30,133 nucleotides of DNA. It comes from a virus. Shown here in pieces: positions 2,125 to 12,289 of the stretch. Each line of letters starts with the position of its first letter. Within the stretch, counting starts at the first letter, position 1. Below the pieces are notes generated by a model that worked only from the letters and a program-made list of their open reading frames with translations, had not been told where the DNA came from and searched no databases. Location: positions 1 to 30,133 of the IMG/VR virus record IMGVR_UViG_3300024581_003098. One strand, 5' to 3'. The translations under genes and the position numbers were made by a program.

Positions 2125-2455
2125 CTTCTTCAGAATTAAACCAAGAAGGCTTTTTGTTTGGCTCATGGATTGTCATCTCTTGGCTCTCGACATAGCCCCT
2201 TCTCTTTCCTTTGGTCTTTAGAAAGAAAATGGTTGCCGCCGTATTGCCATCGGCTATTAGCTTGTGCAATCGGCTCTCAGCAAAATCCAAGGTCTGATCA
2301 TTGATATCATCGACCCTCTTCTTGAATTCAGGATCTTTCATCCATTCATAGAATTGAGATCGGCTGATGCCTGATGATCGGCATGCCGTCGTGATGACCC
2401 CAAGGGATTTCTCAAGTGCTTGGAGGAGGGCCTCCTGTTTGCTCTTATTTGCCAT
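2117..2455 (-). CDS. terS: Terminase small subunit (HTH type)
   Basis: 112 aa. N-terminal HTH (GISRSQFYEWMKD) and TIFFLKTKGKRRGY, as in small terminases. Located upstream of terL. Confidence 0.7.
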   Translation of the reverse strand: MANKSKQEALLQALEKSLGVITTACRSSGISRSQFYEWMKDPEFKKRVDDINDQTLDFAESRLHKLIADGNTAATIFFLKTKGKRRGYVESQEMTIHEPNKKPSWFNSEEDE

Positions 2456-3287
2456 TCATCGTCAAGGATAGAAATTCAGCGCGGACATCCCCATCTTGAA
2501 AGACCCCTGTCAGCTTGCTTGTCCTTGTCTTGGCATTGGGCTTCTTGACGCCCCTCATGGCCATACAAAGGTGCTCAGCCTCAAGGACGACCCCGACCCC
2601 TAGAGGATCGAGCTCTTCCATCAGGAAATCAGCAACCTGATTGGTGATGCGCTCTTGATTCTGGAATCTACGAGAATAGGTCTCCAAGGTTCGGGCCAAT
2701 TTAGAGAGGCCGACAATCCTGTCTTTTGGGATATAGGCTATATGTCCGATGCCAAAGAAGGGAGCCAAATGATGCTCACAGAGAGAATAGAAAGGGATGT
2801 TTGTTTGGACAATCATCTGATCATATCCCTCAGAGCTGAAGGTCGTCAATTTCCATTCTGGAGGGCTCAAGAATTCGCTGAGAAATTTGATATACCTCTT
2901 GGGCGTCTCTTGGAGGCCTTCACGATTGGCATCATCAAAGGATTGAATGACCCGACGCATGTGGGATTCGACATCCCGCTCAACAGATTCTTCCCATGGA
3001 AAGGATAGCCATCGGCCTGAGACATTAGGATCTGTCTGCTTATCGTAGAGGGCAACAAAAGGCTTTCCATATTTCATGACATATTCATCCCTCGTCGCCC
3101 CTGAATCAATCAAATCATCAAGGATGATATCAGCTTCCTCAGGCGTGGCCGCGATTTGCTCAGGATCAAGCATCTGAGCGATGATGGCCCCTCCTCTTGG
3201 GACCCCGTAATATTTCTGCTCAGGCTGGATGATTTCAGAGAGGCGGGCTCTAAGCTCTTGCCAAGAAAAATTCAAAGGATGTTCCAT
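2445..3287 (-). CDS. folE: Fusion protein: N-terminal Gpt-like phosphoribosyltransferase domain + GTP cyclohydrolase I (FolE)
   Basis: The first ~100 residues carry YGVPRGG and the PRPP motif DIILDDLIDSGAT, and end in WLSFPWEE as in E. coli Gpt. The remainder is FolE: ETPKRY, CEHHLAPFFG, VGLSKLAR, RFQNQERIT, EHLCMAMRGV. Confidence 0.88.
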   Translation of the reverse strand: MEHPLNFSWQELRARLSEIIQPEQKYYGVPRGGAIIAQMLDPEQIAATPEEADIILDDLIDSGATRDEYVMKYGKPFVALYDKQTDPNVSGRWLSFPWEESVERDVESHMRRVIQSFDDANREGLQETPKRYIKFLSEFLSPPEWKLTTFSSEGYDQMIVQTNIPFYSLCEHHLAPFFGIGHIAYIPKDRIVGLSKLARTLETYSRRFQNQERITNQVADFLMEELDPLGVGVVLEAEHLCMAMRGVKKPNAKTRTSKLTGVFQDGDVRAEFLSLTMNGK

Positions 3288-3871
3288 AGCTTGTGGTCTT
3301 GGATGCTGAGCCTCCAGATAGGATGATCAAGACAAAGATTCATGCAGTGCCGAATATTCTCCTCATTCGGCTCCCATCCATCAAAATGAGGGCTCAGGAA
3401 AAGATGATCAGCGGTGATGCTAGGCTCTGGAATGACTTGGCCAGCATGACGGACATATCTGAGCTCATCGACATGCGTGAAATTCTTTGCAATGACATGC
3501 TCCGCGACCTTAGGAGAAAGGCTGACAAAATCAAGCTCCTTGCTCACGGGGAATAGCCCGCTCGTCTCAATGGCCTGAAAATATCCTTTAGCATGAAAAA
3601 ATTGTACGACCTCATCGGTAATCCTATCGGCTGGCTCTCCTCCTGTCCAGATGATACTCCTGCAATTGACAGAGAGCCTTTCCATCTGCTGAAGGATCTC
3701 ATCCAAGGTCATATCTGCCCCGCTTTCAAATTCGGTGTCGCATTTAATTCCTGAGGCGAAACAGGCATGCTTGGCTTTGCATCCTTGGATGCGAATGAAA
3801 AAATTTGCGGTCCCCGTGCGGACCCCCTCTCCTTGGAGAGAATAGAAAATTTCAGAGACAGGAAGATTCAT
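3272..3871 (-). CDS. queE: 7-carboxy-7-deazaguanine synthase (radical SAM, QueE)
   Basis: MNLPVSEIFYSLQGEG, then the Cys-rich segment IRIQGCKAKHACFASGIKCDTEF, then WTGGEP. The track start at 3916 is TTG; the first ATG at 3871 gives a canonical N-terminus. Confidence 0.88.
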   Translation of the reverse strand: MNLPVSEIFYSLQGEGVRTGTANFFIRIQGCKAKHACFASGIKCDTEFESGADMTLDEILQQMERLSVNCRSIIWTGGEPADRITDEVVQFFHAKGYFQAIETSGLFPVSKELDFVSLSPKVAEHVIAKNFTHVDELRYVRHAGQVIPEPSITADHLFLSPHFDGWEPNEENIRHCMNLCLDHPIWRLSIQDHKLWNIL

Positions 3872-4283
3872 AGCTGACGGTGCTGGATTTGGTTTCGGCA
3901 AGCTCAATCTTGTCAAGCTCAGCCCTGACCCCTAGGCGTTGGCCTAGATCCTGGATGGCAAGAGAAAGCTCTTGGAAAAAATGAAAGACAAGATTCTCGG
4001 CTGATGTTTCAAATGGGAGGGCAATGAATGGCTCATTGGCCTCTCTTAAAACAGGGACCAAAGGATCATCCTCAGATAGCATGAGATGATGATCATAGCC
4101 CTTGAAATAGGGTTCACAAATTGCATCTATATCCTGAAAGAGGATGGCGACATCTTTTTGCCATTCGGGAAAGCGAAGAAAGACAGAGACCTCATAGGTG
4201 TGCCCATGCAGGCGGGAGCATTTTTCTCCAGCCATCAGATTGCGATGCCCTGCGTAGAAGTGATATTTTTTCTGAATCTTCAT
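3852..4283 (-). CDS. queD: 6-carboxy-5,6,7,8-tetrahydropterin synthase (QueD)
   Basis: YHFYAGHRN and CSRLHGHTYEV motifs. ATG at 4283 forms ATGA with the queC stop; an alternative ATG lies at 4289. The track start at 4364 lies out of frame inside queC. Confidence 0.88.
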   Translation of the reverse strand: MKIQKKYHFYAGHRNLMAGEKCSRLHGHTYEVSVFLRFPEWQKDVAILFQDIDAICEPYFKGYDHHLMLSEDDPLVPVLREANEPFIALPFETSAENLVFHFFQELSLAIQDLGQRLGVRAELDKIELAETKSSTVSYESSCL

Positions 4284-4957
4284 ACCCATCCTCTTTCCTT
4301 GGCTTGCCGATATCCCTTGGCCCTTAGGACTGAGGCTGGATTGTCCTCCTTGCCGTAGCCCCATTCATTTTCTGTCATATCCCCATTGTAATCGGTCATG
4401 GTCTTGGTCCTGATTTGCTCGATGCAATCAAGATCTCCAGCCAATTTCCACGTCTCGGCCTTATCCAAATTCATCAGAGGCGTCCAGATGCGAATCTTGC
4501 CCATGCCCATTCCAAGAAGCAGGGTCTCCTCTAGGCTATTGATTGTCTCTCTTCGACAATCTGGATAGCCTGAGAAATCGGTTTCACAGACCCCCGTGAC
4601 TATATCTCTGATGCCATGGGCTGAAGCCTTGGCGGCAACTATAGTCAAGAAAAGGATGTTTCTTGCTGGCACGAAAGAAGCTGGCAATTCAGGATTCAAA
4701 GGATGAGCCTCATTGTGATCAGAGCCATCCAAGAGCGATGAATTCCCAAGAAGCCCCTCAATATCAATAATCTCATGAGGGCAATCATTCTCAGAGGCCA
4801 ATCTCTTTGCCATCTCAATTTCGACAGAATGCTTTTGTCCATATTGAAAAGAAAAGCAGAAGACCTCATCAAATTCCTTCAGAGCCCAAAAGAGGGATGT
4901 CCCTGAATCTTGGCCTCCAGAAAGCAGGAGGGCGCATCTAGTAGTATTGTTCGGCAT
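4280..4957 (-). CDS. queC: 7-cyano-7-deazaguanine synthase-like protein (QueC family) lacking the C-terminal zinc-cysteine cluster
   Basis: PP-loop ALLLSGGQDSG, FVPARN and VTGVCETDFSGYPDCR. The C-terminus reads TDYNGDMTENEWGYGKEDNPASVLRAKGY where QueC normally has C-x8-C-x2-C-x2-C. The ATG at 4957 gives a QueC-like N-terminus. Confidence 0.88.
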   Translation of the reverse strand: MPNNTTRCALLLSGGQDSGTSLFWALKEFDEVFCFSFQYGQKHSVEIEMAKRLASENDCPHEIIDIEGLLGNSSLLDGSDHNEAHPLNPELPASFVPARNILFLTIVAAKASAHGIRDIVTGVCETDFSGYPDCRRETINSLEETLLLGMGMGKIRIWTPLMNLDKAETWKLAGDLDCIEQIRTKTMTDYNGDMTENEWGYGKEDNPASVLRAKGYRQAKERGWV

Positions 4958-5795
4958 ATTTTCCAAATTTGATCCATTCATTGAAATTGTGCATTGCGAC
5001 TTTTCGCCCGTTGATTTTTTTGCCTGCTGGCCTCTCAATCTTTCTCATATTCCTCCCATCAAAGTGATAGAGAAAGCCTCCCATATTGCCAGCCAGCCAA
5101 GCCGTCGAATCAACAGAGTCAAATTTGATTTTGGGCAGCAGCTCCAATCTGGTGAATCCTAGGCCATGGACCCTGCAATCATTTTCCTTGGCTATTTGTA
5201 TGAGCTTGACGAAGATGGGAAACTCCTCTTTTTTTATCTCTTTAGTTACGATGCCCCCAATGGCCACGAGCTCATAATCTTTGACCATCCCTTTCCAATA
5301 GTCCAGCCCTCTTGATTTATGCCAGACAGGGATGCAGGGAAATTGTGTCCTCGTCTCCAATCGCCTTCTCAGCTTTTCGACATCCTTGAGGGGCATGATT
5401 GAATCAAGGTCCAGCTCCAAAAATTGAGAGCATTGAAGCTCCTTGATAGCCTCAGAATATCTGTCGATGTATCGAGTCCAATTTGGGGCCTCCTTTTTCT
5501 GCTTATTCATAAAGGTAAAAGCTCCAGAATCCAGCATGAAGTCCTTGAAGTGCTCCCTGTGATCTCGGTAGAAGGGAATGCTCTCTTGGATGTAATAGTA
5601 GCTCTCAAGGACGTAGGGCAAATCGGTCGTCATCTGATAGCTGGGCAAGGGCTTCTCCCTTTCTTTTAGAAAGCGTCTTGCGGCCTCTTCGATGAGGAAA
5701 GGCCTGCTCCAAGTCCCGACTTGATATATCTTCATGTATTCTGTCCAAAAGGGGCGCAGATTGCCCGTGACGCCCCCTGCCATGTAGATTTTCAC
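4938..5795 (-). CDS. dpdA: DpdA-family DNA 7-deazaguanine transglycosylase (TGT-like)
   Basis: FMLDSGAFTF (TGT-like DSG Asp), RVHGLGFT and FDSVDSTAW. 285 aa, adjacent to queC. GTG at 5795 overlaps the ParB-like stop (GTGA); an alternative ATG lies at 5783. Confidence 0.78.
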   Translation of the reverse strand: MKIYMAGGVTGNLRPFWTEYMKIYQVGTWSRPFLIEEAARRFLKEREKPLPSYQMTTDLPYVLESYYYIQESIPFYRDHREHFKDFMLDSGAFTFMNKQKKEAPNWTRYIDRYSEAIKELQCSQFLELDLDSIMPLKDVEKLRRRLETRTQFPCIPVWHKSRGLDYWKGMVKDYELVAIGGIVTKEIKKEEFPIFVKLIQIAKENDCRVHGLGFTRLELLPKIKFDSVDSTAWLAGNMGGFLYHFDGRNMRKIERPAGKKINGRKVAMHNFNEWIKFGKYAEQYY

Positions 5796-6331
5796 AGGCC
5801 TAGCAATTTCATGACAATGGCTTCCCTGGATCCTTGCAATTGGCTGAAGGCCTCAATGACCTTCTCATAATCATCAGCCGAATAATCTAGGACAATTTGA
5901 GTCTTTGGAGCTTTCTCCTCATCCTCTGTGTCTTCAAAAAATTCGTCGAGATCAAGCTCAGGATTCCAAATGTCCAGACCCCAAGATTGGAGCTCTCCAG
6001 CATCATATTCATTGGCCAAGAGATCATAGTCCCAAGCCCCAAACGGCACATTGTCCTTGATGATGAATTCCTCTTTCTCCTTTTCGGTCGCTCCTTCTAT
6101 CTTTTCGACCAAGACCTCTTTGATTCCAGCCTCTTTGAGGGCTCTCAATCGCTGGTTGCCCCCTAGGACAATATTTTCCTCATCAATGACAAGGGGCCTC
6201 AATTGAAGCATCCAAGGGGCTGTCTTGATGGAATCAACAAGAAGGTGAAATTTCTCCTCGGTGATGGAACGAGGATTGTCGGGATTGGGCCGTATCTGCT
6301 CAATCTTGAGGGTCTGACGCGATATCTTCAC
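5792..6331 (-). CDS. ParB N-terminal-domain (ParB/Srx superfamily) protein with an acidic C-terminal tail
   Basis: IEQIRPNPDNPR and VLGGNQRLRALKEAGIKEV are the ParB box motifs. There is an acidic stretch, DLDEFFEDTEDEE. 179 aa. Confidence 0.8.
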   Translation of the reverse strand: MKISRQTLKIEQIRPNPDNPRSITEEKFHLLVDSIKTAPWMLQLRPLVIDEENIVLGGNQRLRALKEAGIKEVLVEKIEGATEKEKEEFIIKDNVPFGAWDYDLLANEYDAGELQSWGLDIWNPELDLDEFFEDTEDEEKAPKTQIVLDYSADDYEKVIEAFSQLQGSREAIVMKLLGL

Positions 6332-11472: not shown

Positions 11473-11645
11473 GCTTCTTTCATTTTGATGAAGAGGTAGG
11501 CCTCTTCGATTGATGTGCATTGTGGGGTCTTAATCTTCTGTCCATCTCTGAGATGGATTTGATTGAGCTCAGGAGCGTATGAGTGACGCTCCAGCTTTTC
11601 GACATTCCTGAGGAAGGCCTCAAAAGGGGTTCGGGGTTGTTTCAT
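11469..11645 (-). CDS. Hypothetical protein, 58 aa
   Basis: Trimmed to the ATG at 11645, which forms ATGA with the methyltransferase stop. Confidence 0.6.
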   Translation of the reverse strand: MKQPRTPFEAFLRNVEKLERHSYAPELNQIHLRDGQKIKTPQCTSIEEAYLFIKMKEA

Positions 11646-12289
11646 CCTATTAATTTGAATTCTTTTCTCTTTCCTTGGACTTGAAGGTCCGCGGCAACCA
11701 TGACGGCAAGGCATAGCTCATGAGGAATGATGCTCCTTTCATGATTTCCTTTCAGGCCTTGGGTCCCTGTCTTGGAGCCCCTAGGAGCAGCCTCATGACA
11801 GGAAGATCCAGGCCGGCACATAGGCCTTGGAATCCAGAGCCTAGAATTCGTCCAGATATCTGTCGGCTTCATTCGATTGTCTCCATATTGGCAGTAGGTC
11901 ACGGTCGCTCTTGGGAGATGAAGCATCTCAGGCCTCTTCCTCATCATCCCTCTTGGATTCTCAATGAACCAAACCTTGGGCTTCTTGACCTTGATGATTT
12001 CAAGGGTCCTGTGAAGCAATTTGAGGCCAAGCTCAGCCCCTTCAGAAATAGGCTTGCCATCTCTCCAATGATGAGATACGGCGGCAATAGAGAAGCTCGT
12101 GCAAGGAGGAGAGGCCCAAATGATATCAGCCTCAGGCAACTCTTCAATTGGGATTTCAAGAATATCTCCAACCAAATCAATTTCCCCGAATTGGGTGATG
12201 TCCGTGGAGAAGCTAGACATGCCGAGCTCATCGCAAGCCTTTCCAATGCTTCTGCTCCCCGCAAAGAGCTCAAGGACCTGATATTTCAT
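11642..12289 (-). CDS. Compact DNA (cytosine-5) methyltransferase
   Basis: Motif I LELFAGSRS, motif IV SPPCTSFS (catalytic Cys), motif VI FIENPRG, then CQYGD..KPT and a C-terminal IIPHELCLAV. Only 215 aa. Confidence 0.78.
   Translation of the reverse strand: MKYQVLELFAGSRSIGKACDELGMSSFSTDITQFGEIDLVGDILEIPIEELPEADIIWASPPCTSFSIAAVSHHWRDGKPISEGAELGLKLLHRTLEIIKVKKPKVWFIENPRGMMRKRPEMLHLPRATVTYCQYGDNRMKPTDIWTNSRLWIPRPMCRPGSSCHEAAPRGSKTGTQGLKGNHERSIIPHELCLAVMVAADLQVQGKRKEFKLIG

Follow-up and report, generated by a model that had tools for sequence, protein, structure and literature searches.

The question raised by this locus is whether a QueC protein that has lost all four of its zinc-binding cysteines still makes preQ0. 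The gene lies in a viral DNA of 30,133 nucleotides (IMG/VR record IMGVR_UViG_3300024581_003098), the whole of which is referred to here as the window. With ATP and ammonia, QueC converts CDG (7-carboxy-7-deazaguanine) to the amide ADG and then to preQ0 (7-cyano-7-deazaguanine) in two ATP-dependent steps. The C(x)8CxxCxxC zinc motif and the PP-loop are the two hallmarks of the QueC family (PMC13329287), and only the second is present in the window protein. The evidence presented below makes it probable that the enzyme still produces preQ0, and that in place of the structural Zn(Cys)4 site it has a fold that lacks the cysteines and probably the metal as well. Variants of QueC without these cysteines were not mentioned in the literature searched, and the novelty is structural and evolutionary.

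Identification of the queC gene and its conserved motifs

The gene was located on the minus strand at positions 4280..4957, with an ATG start codon at 4957, and encodes a protein of 225 amino acids. From its translation and from profile and structure matches it was assigned as a cysteine-free QueC homologue, of the kind called type I in the following. The Pfam QueC profile matched residues 9-219 (E 6.6e-56; 189.6 bits, cutoff 22), and the NCBIfam equivalog model TIGR00364 gave 186.5 bits, above its cutoff of 150.3. With the enterobacterial model NF008317 the score was 184.9 bits, below the cutoff of 378. The solved QueC structures 3BL5 and 2PG3 were matched with E values of 6e-48 and 6e-45. 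An AF2 model superposed over its full length on the QueC structures, in the case of 2PG3 over 221 alignment columns (Foldseek TM about 0.78). The pLDDT of this model was 93.5, and 93-97 in the C-terminal subdomain (residues 181-225), values which partly mirror the alignment and are uninformative on metal content. An exact copy of the protein was not found in public assemblies.

The ATP pyrophosphatase motif, the PP-loop SGGQDS, was read at residues 13-18 (4904..4921, minus strand) and is invariant in an alignment of 80 homologues. The GYPDCR core was found at residues 130-135. Both elements had been described as intact in the sequence-only reading of the window (there as the PP-loop and SGYPDCR), and the translation bears this out. 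The substrate-binding and catalytic motifs comprise Y39-G-Q41-K-H43-S-V-E46, V96-P-A-R99-N100, Y131-P-D-C134 and Y190; YxQxHxxE, VPxRN, YPDC and Y190 are invariant or nearly so among the 80 homologues. The catalytic residues are unchanged in sets of 80 to over 200 homologues whose overall identity is only 53-60%. Y190 corresponds to Y189 of E. coli QueC, of which the alanine mutant is inactive (PMC13329287).

The protein consists of a single domain and has no N-terminal glutamine amidotransferase domain, and was therefore not classed as Gat-QueC. It was likewise not classed with QatC or Cap9, as it is surrounded by DpdA, QueD, QueE and FolE and not by QatABD or CD-NTase genes, and the phage encodes a TerL. 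The defence-type QueC model of PADLOC gave a weak and partial match of 38 bits, compared with 190 on Pfam QueC. The genomic linkage to queD, queE and folE that is typical of QueC was present, all of these genes being adjacent and co-oriented with overlapping junctions. Because the canonical C(x)8CxxCxxC zinc-binding motif was absent, the protein was filed as a QueC variant and not as a canonical member.

Replacement of the zinc ligands

The QueC structures from B. subtilis (3BL5) and Pectobacterium (2PG3) served as the reference for the zinc ligands. The last cysteine of the window protein is C178 in DLDC, as the sequence-only reading had noted, and TDYNGDMTENEWGYGKEDNPASVLRAKGY was read at residues 188-216. 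Alignments to 3BL5 and to the QueC of phage CAjan showed that the segment TMTDYNGDMTENEWGYGKEDNPASVLR (residues 186-212; 4322..4402, minus strand) stands in place of C-x8-C-x2-C-x2-C. In the alignment to the closer CAjan protein, the first ligand corresponds to D189, the second to K203, the third to N206 and the fourth to S209. The B. subtilis alignment also placed an aspartate at the first position, and its pairing of ECPAC with DNPAS gave asparagine at the third and serine at the fourth. The loss of all four zinc ligands, first claimed from the window sequence, was thus confirmed by alignment.

In the alignment of 80 homologues T188, Y190, W199, G200, G202, N206, P207, L211 and R212 are invariant, and D189 is conserved in at least 90%. 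As the replacement residues are conserved in 80 homologues, neither chance nor a sequencing error accounts for the loss of the cysteines. Among 67 parsed viral copies of type I, 65 have no cysteine in the zinc region. The fourth ligand position is occupied by threonine in 45 of these copies and by serine in 21, and at the second the residue varies freely (N, V, K, I, D, L, S and others). In the AF2 model a helix is predicted at residues 207-221, with the NPA[ST] turn at its start.

The gene cassette surrounding queC

A DpdA-like DNA-guanine transglycosylase of 285 amino acids is encoded at 4938..5795 (minus strand), and its stop overlaps the start of queC by 20 nt. This protein matched phrog_887 (queuine tRNA-ribosyltransferase) with an E value of 1e-40. 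It had no Pfam match, a weak match to the PADLOC DpdA model and a score of 21.6 bits with the NCBIfam DpdA model (cutoff 200). Its identity was 37% to DpdA of Fusobacterium phage phiFN37 and 22-23% to those of CAjan and Iggy. Directly upstream of dpdA, a protein of 179 amino acids with a ParB N-terminal domain is encoded at 5792..6331 (minus strand). It matched Pfam ParB_N with an E value of 1.5e-5, which is below the Pfam cutoff, and matched PHROG ParB-like and methyltransferase families. A ParB-like gene adjoins dpdA in phiFN37 too, and in 57 of the 80 viral loci.

On the other side, the start of queD (CPH4 synthase; 3852..4289, minus strand) overlaps the stop of queC by 10 nt. QueD matched Pfam PTPS (E 7.7e-19) and phrog_2389, and its CxxxHGH motif is intact (EKCSRLHGH, read from the sequence). 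It is followed by a QueE-like radical SAM enzyme (CDG synthase; 3272..3916, minus strand), which matched phrog_2076 (E 1e-21) and, below threshold, Pfam Radical_SAM. The start codon of this gene is uncertain (TTG at 3916, or an ATG further inside, near 3871); the protein is 55-73% identical to that of the same gene in related loci. FolE (GTP cyclohydrolase I; 2445..3287, minus strand) matched Pfam GTP_cyclohydroI over residues 107-275 (E 3.8e-59) as well as TIGR00063. Its N-terminus is extended by a further domain of some 100 amino acids, which is conserved in related cassettes. A phosphoribosyltransferase identity for this extension is no more than a tentative lead, as no Pfam match was obtained and xanthine-PRTase matches reached an E value of only about 0.8.

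The cassette ParB-DpdA-QueC-QueD-QueE-FolE is conserved, with DpdA in 70, QueD in 72, QueE in 75 and FolE in 73 of the 80 viral loci. QueF, or another enzyme requiring preQ0, was not found in the window.

Distribution of cysteine-free QueC proteins

The cysteine-free motif TDYNG-x4-5-NEWGxG-x3-NPA[ST]xLR was present in all of the best 120 metagenome homologues (53-91% identity), and the type I motif was also present in at least 120 viral contigs of IMG/VR. To judge from this conservation, the replacement motif is under strong purifying selection, and the window gene is evidently a member of a large, conserved group, neither a one-off nor a decaying gene. The motif was not found in isolated phages (a collection of 50,697 phage records), where the best C-terminal matches were 49-53% identical and had the cysteines. 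In a neighbour-joining tree all type I sequences grouped together, with or without the columns of the zinc region. The bootstrap without these columns was weak, every cysteine-containing sequence being excluded from type I in 73 of 200 replicates, and a common origin of type I is therefore based on the shared derived motif and not on the tree.

Two further cysteine-free types were found. Type II is known solely from metagenome proteins. There are 43 records of isolated phages with type III, including Pseudomonas phages Iggy and Baskent_P4_1, Rhizobium phages RHEph04-06 and Dinoroseobacter phage (roseophage) R5C. In the neighbour-joining tree type III branches apart from type I, so that the loss was probably independent, and the hallmark zinc motif has apparently been given up in three motif types of different construction. 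Mycobacterium phage Rosebush, in which dPreQ0 has been verified and the host of which has no preQ0 pathway, was considered as a proof case for a cysteine-free enzyme and was rejected, as its QueC keeps C-x10-C-x2-C-x2-C. The cysteines are kept in the three experimentally supported phage QueCs that were read, those of CAjan, Rosebush and phiSM, which counts against a functional enzyme without them.

The conserved residues in type I allow the site to be read in another way, namely that Asp189, Asn206 and Ser/Thr209, together with backbone carbonyls, bind Mg2+, Ca2+, Na+ or, weakly, zinc, with the product unchanged. Oxygen donors do occupy three of the four ligand positions (D in at least 90%, N invariant, S or T in 66 of 67), and random or hydrophobic residues have not been selected there. 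However, the full variability of the second position speaks against a ligand set, and a metal site common to the three types is not required, because the first position is G, A or S in types II and III. In the AF2 model N-P-A-[ST] lies at the predicted start of a helix and would resemble a helix cap more than a set of ligands. An exchange of one metal for another is accordingly considered unlikely, and a fold held together by its own side chains is preferred.

Association of type I QueC with QueF

QueF is a nitrile reductase that requires preQ0. In 11 of the 80 viral loci the cysteine-free type I queC directly adjoins queF. In the viral QueF proteins the catalytic cysteine is present together with the NADPH motif E-[SL]-K-x-h-K, and their scores with Pfam QueF were 66-75 bits (cutoff 27). 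Several of the phages with QueF have a TerL that is 49-53% identical to the TerL of the window. Type I QueC was also found, at 49-53% identity, in 12 Marinoscillum, Flammeovirgaceae or Cytophagales MAG or SAG loci on contigs of up to 417 kb. In all six of the marine Cytophagales-type loci inspected, the type I queC overlaps queF (TIGR03139; 100.5 bits, cutoff 86.9), and the neighbours of this chromosomal pair are housekeeping genes such as those for transketolase, TrpRS and MiaB. Copies with and without linkage to queF were interleaved in the tree and did not form separate groups. Among the phages with type III QueC, roseophage R5C also encodes QueF.

The sequence-only reading had suggested both that a variant without zinc may still work and that it could stall at, or release, ADG or CDG. 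The first suggestion is strongly favoured by gene context, in the viral queC-queF pairs and in the queC-queF operon of Marinoscillum and other Cytophagales. According to the second, the enzyme would perform only the first step or release an intermediate, which the divergent DpdA would insert, giving dADG or dCDG in the DNA with no need for a DpdC-type enzyme. In its favour, the protein lacks the hallmark zinc motif, the window DpdA is unlike characterised DpdA1 or DpdA2, and neither QueF nor any other consumer of preQ0 was found in the window. Phages with dADG and dCDG exist, and for Campylobacter phage CP220 it has been suggested that a QueC homologue, QueC*, acts as an ADG synthase (PMC10516641). 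Nevertheless, the same type of QueC with identical motifs adjoins the nitrile-requiring QueF in viruses and in Marinoscillum chromosomes, the QueF-linked and QueF-less copies are intermingled, and the known catalytic residues are all unchanged. In addition, the DNA of Iggy, which has a cysteine-free QueC of another type, is reported to have 16.5% of its G replaced, "strictly" by dPreQ0 (PMC10484667). Beyond the missing cysteines nothing was found in support of an altered product, and we regard it as very unlikely. The host of Iggy has a canonical QueC of its own, which counts against the argument from Iggy.

A divided version of this proposal, in which the zinc-free QueC of QueF-less cassettes releases ADG or a mixture that is inserted by the ParB-partnered DpdA while the QueF-linked copies run to preQ0, is given an equally small chance. 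If true, it would provide a one-enzyme route to dADG DNA without DpdC. The sequence-only reading had itself named a finding that would speak against its proposal, namely that the cysteine cluster is commonly dispensable in preQ0-forming QueCs, and this is what the genomics and published mass spectrometry indicate (43 phage records; Iggy, PMC10484667). The end-product of the pathway seems to be preQ0 in each cysteine-free context read.

That the window QueC is a decaying or non-catalytic relic, with preQ0 for the phage DpdA provided by a host QueC, is scarcely credible: some phages do carry DpdA only and use host preQ0 (PMC6884629), and CAjan without its queC still gains a little dPreQ0 from the host (PMC7544227), but here the reading frame is intact and translationally coupled on both sides, the catalytic residues are as strictly conserved as described above, the fold is predicted with confidence, and the same type is a chromosomal bacterial gene coupled to queF.

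Proposed function of the cysteine-free QueC

A working preQ0 synthase is thus the preferred reading of the window gene. As all ATP- and CDG-binding residues are kept, the chemistry is most likely normal (CDG to ADG to preQ0). The loop that wraps the zinc in canonical enzymes carries the invariant Trp-Gly-x-Gly insert, followed by the Asn-Pro-Ala-Ser/Thr turn that is predicted to open the last helix. In place of zinc, the C-terminal subdomain, and with it the essential Tyr190, would be kept in position by packing of the tryptophan and by hydrogen bonds that link Asp189, Asn206 and Ser209. The insert is also present in cysteine-containing relatives such as CAjan QueC, and probably made the zinc redundant before the cysteines were lost.

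The translationally coupled FolE, QueD, QueE and QueC would make preQ0 in the phage, and the adjacent DpdA-like transglycosylase would swap it into the phage DNA, possibly with the help of the ParB-like protein. Since the window has no QueF, ordinary dPreQ0 is the expected modification and not a new one. The analysis establishes the motifs of the protein, how well they are conserved, the surrounding genes and a confidently predicted fold; from these we infer the product of the window QueC, the absence of metal and the base put into the DNA, and the functional arguments come from gene context. Deletion of queC in phage CAjan lowered dPreQ0 12-fold (PMC7544227), so that the phage enzyme is needed for modification at a high level.

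If the window QueC works as proposed, the hallmark zinc site of QueC is dispensable in nature, and the zinc of QueC would be structural and not catalytic. Annotation rules or motif filters that demand the cysteines will overlook about one phage QueC in six. The cysteine-free variants would also be natural, ready-made designs for a metal-independent preQ0 synthase.

Comparison with known systems

The canonical QueC proteins (E. coli, B. subtilis 3BL5, Pectobacterium 2PG3) have the same fold as the window QueC at 40-41% identity. The PP-loop, YxQxHxxE, VPxRN and YPDC motifs, the essential tyrosine and the neighbours QueD, QueE and FolE are common to both. In contrast, the zinc motif is entirely replaced in the window protein, and the loop is longer and contains an invariant tryptophan. 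The nearest cysteine-containing relatives are the QueC proteins of CAjan, S0112, Ssp-JY38 and the IMG/VR locus L017, with 41-48% identity and the [HN][DE]WGxG insert in common; the L017 protein has the same C-terminal ending, ...KGYYEAKEKGWL, as the window QueC. QueC of the CAjan kind keeps the four cysteines (TCYNG...WGxGCGxCPAC), while D, x, N and S/T replace them in the window type. CAjan DNA carries dPreQ0, which is largely dependent on the phage queC (PMC7544227).

Type III QueC resembles the window type in that the four ligands are gone, the catalytic motifs are kept and the genes lie in clusters with DpdA, QueD, QueE and FolE. It differs in its motif (SHT[AS]YDGxYPPxGxxH[AS]xxLRAxGFEEAxVPDP), in having no tryptophan insert and in an extended C-terminus (279-354 amino acids). 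The CP220 QueC* (PMC10516641) is, like the window QueC, a phage homologue that has been suggested to deviate from preQ0. It works with DpdA3, whereas the window has no evident relative of DpdA3. A QueC-like gene was not found in the first 50 kb of FN667788, where the CP220 QueC* was sought.

Retention of function without a structural Zn(Cys)4 site has a precedent in C-minus paralogues of zinc-ribbon proteins such as DksA2, and two other enzymes of the queuosine pathway have zinc-sparing alternatives, the low-zinc QueD2 and FolE1B (PMC11672702). The loss of cysteines from QueC may be a zinc-sparing adaptation like that of QueD2 and FolE1B. These proteins are Zur-regulated second copies within one genome, however, and the zinc-sparing reading is for QueC a tentative one. 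QueC does not occur in the zinc review (Chem Rev 2024, PMC11672702).

The anti-phage protein deazaguanylases QatC and Cap9 share the PF06508 fold and the PP-loop with the window QueC. They differ in that variant zinc motifs are kept and the catalytic signatures are different or reduced (PMC13329287). That even these proteins keep a zinc motif suggests that the site normally matters, which counts against a functional enzyme without zinc. The window QueC, in which the catalytic signatures are retained and the zinc motif is not, differs from both in belonging to a biosynthetic cassette.

Identification of the window QueC and its lost zinc ligands

The minus-strand ORF at 4280-4957 (ATG at 4957, stop codon at 4280-4282, 225 amino acids) was unambiguously assigned to QueC by its profile matches. 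It matched Pfam PF06508 over residues 9-219 (E = 6.6e-56) and scored 186.5 bits on NCBIfam TIGR00364 (curated cutoff, 150.3). The best solved relatives were B. subtilis 3BL5 (E = 6e-48) and Pectobacterium 2PG3 (E = 6e-45). The sequence-only reading had described an intact PP-loop and YPDC core combined with a loss of the zinc-ligand cysteines. Translation confirmed the PP-loop SGGQDS (residues 13-18) and Y131PDC134, and the catalytic motifs were complete, including Y39xQ41xH43xxE46, VPAR99N100 and Y190. Y190 corresponds to Y189 of the E. coli enzyme, and replacing that residue with alanine abolishes activity, according to the accessible text of a 2026 PF06508 survey (PMC13329287). The cysteine loss was correct in each checkable detail. 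The zinc motif C(x)8CxxCxxC was absent, the final cysteine was C178, and alignments to 3BL5 and to the closer QueC of phage CAjan placed D189, K203, N206 and S209 at the four ligand positions C1, C2, C3 and C4, respectively. An AlphaFold2 model built from an alignment reached a pLDDT of 93.5 (93-97 for residues 181-225) and a pTM of 0.90, and matched both 2PG3 and 3BL5 along its full length (TM about 0.78). Residues 187-201 formed a β-hairpin-like segment in the model, and the C-terminal helix began at P207.

The modification cassette

The queC gene is part of a co-oriented, translationally coupled minus-strand cassette. A ParB-N-domain protein (5792-6331, 179 amino acids) lies immediately upstream of a DpdA-like transglycosylase (4938-5795; phrog_887, E = 1e-40); QueC is followed by QueD (3852-4289, CxxxHGH motif intact), a QueE-like radical SAM enzyme (3272-3916) and FolE (2445-3287), which carries an additional N-terminal domain of about 100 amino acids. 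The small and large terminase genes follow. The window is phage DNA with a 7-deazaguanine DNA-modification module, and no QueF, DpdM or other post-preQ0 enzyme was found in it. The window DpdA was 22-23% identical to DpdA of phages CAjan and Iggy and 37% identical to that of Fusobacterium phage phiFN37. Of 80 related viral loci, 57 had such a ParB N-terminal-domain protein immediately upstream of DpdA, and so did phiFN37. Since bacterial DpdA requires the ParB-like ATPase DpdB, the window protein may be a phage analogue of DpdB; DpdB models gave no match to it.

Other members of the cassette had unusual features. The N-terminal domain of FolE (residues 1-105) contains ...VPRGG...ADIILDDLIDSGAT..., resembling a PRPP-binding motif. 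This extension had no Pfam match, and xanthine-guanine PRTases matched at E of about 0.8 only; it was kept in related cassettes (FolE of 274-290 amino acids in loci L004, L069 and L087). The QueE-like protein showed an odd cysteine spacing at the expected radical-SAM cluster site, GCKAKHACFASGIKCDT (C-x5-C-x6-C), and scored 21 bits on Pfam Radical_SAM, below the cutoff of 29.5. QueE proteins of related loci fell into two similarity classes of about 60% and 30% identity. Elsewhere in the window, a 215-amino-acid minus-strand ORF (11642-12289) with ELFAGSRSIG and PPCTSFS resembled, by eye, motifs I and IV of DNA cytosine-C5 methyltransferases; a second kind of DNA modification by the phage is possible.

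Distribution and origin of type I QueC

Homologues of the window QueC were searched among 5.8 billion proteins. The four cysteines were absent from all of the best 120 matches (120/120; 53-91% identity), which shared the motif T-[LM]-T-D-Y-N-G-x4-5-N-E-W-G-x-G-x3-N-P-A-[ST]-x-L-R-x-K-G-Y-x-E-A-K-x-x-G-W-[IL]. By this shared motif the window QueC belongs to a family, referred to as type I, and is no accident. In an alignment of 80 sequences with an overall identity to the window QueC of only about 57%, T188, Y190, W199, G200, G202, N206, P207, L211, R212 and G215 were invariant, and D189 was conserved to at least 90%. A DNA pattern written for the motif was found in at least 120 IMG/VR viral contigs. 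The zinc region lacked cysteine in 65 of 67 parsed copies; the C4 position held T in 45 and S in 21 of the 67, and the C2 position varied freely.

In a collection with one genome per species the pattern matched 17 loci. Five were short contigs bearing the phage cassette, and twelve (L045, L046, L048, L050-L054, L056, L057, L060 and L061) were marine Cytophagales chromosomes, from Marinoscillum/Flammeovirgaceae/Cytophagales MAGs and single-cell genomes with contigs of up to 417 kb. Type I QueC is thus common among phages and also occurs in a single bacterial lineage. The bacterial copies formed one clade in 100% of bootstraps and were nested among viral ones in the point-estimate tree, suggesting phage-host exchange. 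The nearest viral copy was that of locus L069, whose QueF is 59% identical to the bacterial QueF. Because of this nesting and resemblance, the queC-queF pair may have moved between phage and host.

The nearest Cys-containing relatives of type I were QueC of CAjan, Shewanella phage S0112, Synechococcus phage Ssp-JY38 and the IMG/VR locus L017. Like type I, all four have an [HN]-[DE]-W-G-x-G insert before the CxxC knuckle, and L017 QueC has the same ending as type I, ...KGYYEAKEKGWL. The simplest history would be that loss of the cysteines followed the gain of the Trp-containing insert. All type I sequences grouped together in a neighbour-joining tree, but without the zinc-region columns no Cys-containing sequence intruded in just 73 of 200 bootstrap replicates, which is weak support. 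A single origin is therefore argued from the shared derived motif and not from the tree.

Other Cys-free types

The full zinc motif was kept in 103 of the 150 nearest 50%-identity cluster representatives. The same 150 included a second Cys-free type (type II; THTGYxGD...WG[WY]GP...DPASxIR, in metagenome proteins) and sequences in which one or three of the cysteines remained. Cys-free or partly Cys-free metagenome proteins were P0145, P0154, P0178, P0183, P0277, P0161 and P0226; P0161, with three cysteines, and P0226, with one, are possible intermediates.

Type III, with the motif SHT-[AS]-YDG-x-YPP-x-G-x-x-H-[AS]-x-x-LRA-x-GFEEA-x-VPDP, occurred in 43 isolated-phage records, roughly one in six of the about 245 records with any QueC match. 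It was common in phages of Pseudomonas, Rhizobium, Stenotrophomonas, Dinoroseobacter, cyanobacteria and others. Translation showed the zinc ligands to be absent from Dinoroseobacter phage R5C (L185), Pseudomonas phages Baskent_P4_1 (L186) and Iggy (L188:16406-17467), and Rhizobium phage RHEph05 (L187). Iggy QueC has a further C-terminal extension of about 140 amino acids with three scattered cysteines. Its authors remarked on the odd, long QueC, and the missing cysteines are not remarked on in the accessible passages (PMC10484667).

A proposed metal-free C-terminal subdomain

In the proposed arrangement, W199 would pack where Zn(Cys)4 holds canonical QueC together, N206-P-A-S209 would cap the last helix, and D189 would hydrogen-bond across to N206 and S209. 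With these contacts, no metal would be needed to keep the C-terminal subdomain, and Y190 with it, in place over the active site. Alternatively, the site may have switched from zinc to a hard cation. This is an unlikely, minor alternative, as the C2 position is variable in type I and C1 is G, A or S in types II and III.

The product of Cys-free QueC

Four independent lines indicate that Cys-free QueC would still make preQ0: QueF adjacency in phages, the bacterial queC-queF pairs, type III in cultured phages, and deletion of queC in CAjan. QueF directly adjoined the Cys-free QueC in 11 of 80 type I viral loci. Eight of these QueF proteins were B. subtilis-like (gene order ParB-DpdA-QueF-QueC-QueD-QueE-FolE), and these eight and the remaining three alike retained the NADPH motif and catalytic Cys, scoring 66-75 bits on Pfam QueF (cutoff, 27). 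Because QueF acts by reducing the preQ0 nitrile, a QueC upstream of it must supply preQ0. The TerL of several QueF-bearing phages was 49-53% identical to that of the window, which relates them to the window phage. The other three QueF proteins shared 55-62% identity with the QueF of Cellulophaga phage phiSM, whose DNA contains dPreQ1 (PMC10516641).

DpdA was 35-40% identical to the window DpdA in QueF cassettes (L089, L090, L102, L117, L125, L132, L138 and L139) and 44-55% in most cassettes lacking QueF. Behind this split may lie a change in the preferred base, preQ1 instead of preQ0, or just divergence between lineages.

In all six inspected bacterial loci a 221-amino-acid type I QueC (49-53% identity to the window QueC) overlapped a 140-amino-acid QueF by a few bases. 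This QueF scored 100.5 bits on TIGR03139 (cutoff, 86.9), and the neighbours included transketolase, tryptophanyl-tRNA synthetase and MiaB genes. The pair looks like part of the bacterium's own queuosine pathway.

Among cultured phages, R5C has a canonical QueF two genes from its type III QueC. In Iggy about 16.5% of G is "strictly" replaced by dPreQ0, according to the accessible passages of PMC10484667; a canonical QueC is present in its host. Deletion of queC in CAjan lowered dPreQ0 12-fold (PMC7544227), so high-level modification depends on the phage's own enzyme. The three best-supported phage QueC cases read (CAjan, Rosebush and phiSM) keep the cysteines.

The suggestion that the zinc-less enzyme still works is thus probably correct. 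The alternative offered with it, that ADG or CDG is the product, for which QueC* of phage CP220 is the precedent, is unlikely in view of the QueF adjacency and the strict dPreQ0 of Iggy.

Comparison with known systems

The accessible text of the 2026 survey describes C(x)8CxxCxxC as a highly conserved hallmark. It notes that even QatC and Cap9 have zinc motifs, in variant form, and says nothing of canonical-cluster PF06508 members that lack the cysteines (PMC13329287). A full-text search, mostly outside subscription journals, found no paper on Cys-free QueC, and QueC does not occur in a 2024 review of bacterial metal homeostasis (PMC11672702). Within this literature the Cys-free types therefore appear to be undescribed. 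Structurally, the window QueC is a new version of a known enzyme, and most likely neither new chemistry nor a new DNA base results from it. Cys-free QueC corrects the definition of the QueC family and suggests a zinc-sparing story; the 2024 review describes Cys-less DksA2 and, from the same pathway as QueC, the low-zinc paralogues QueD2 and FolE1B (PMC11672702).
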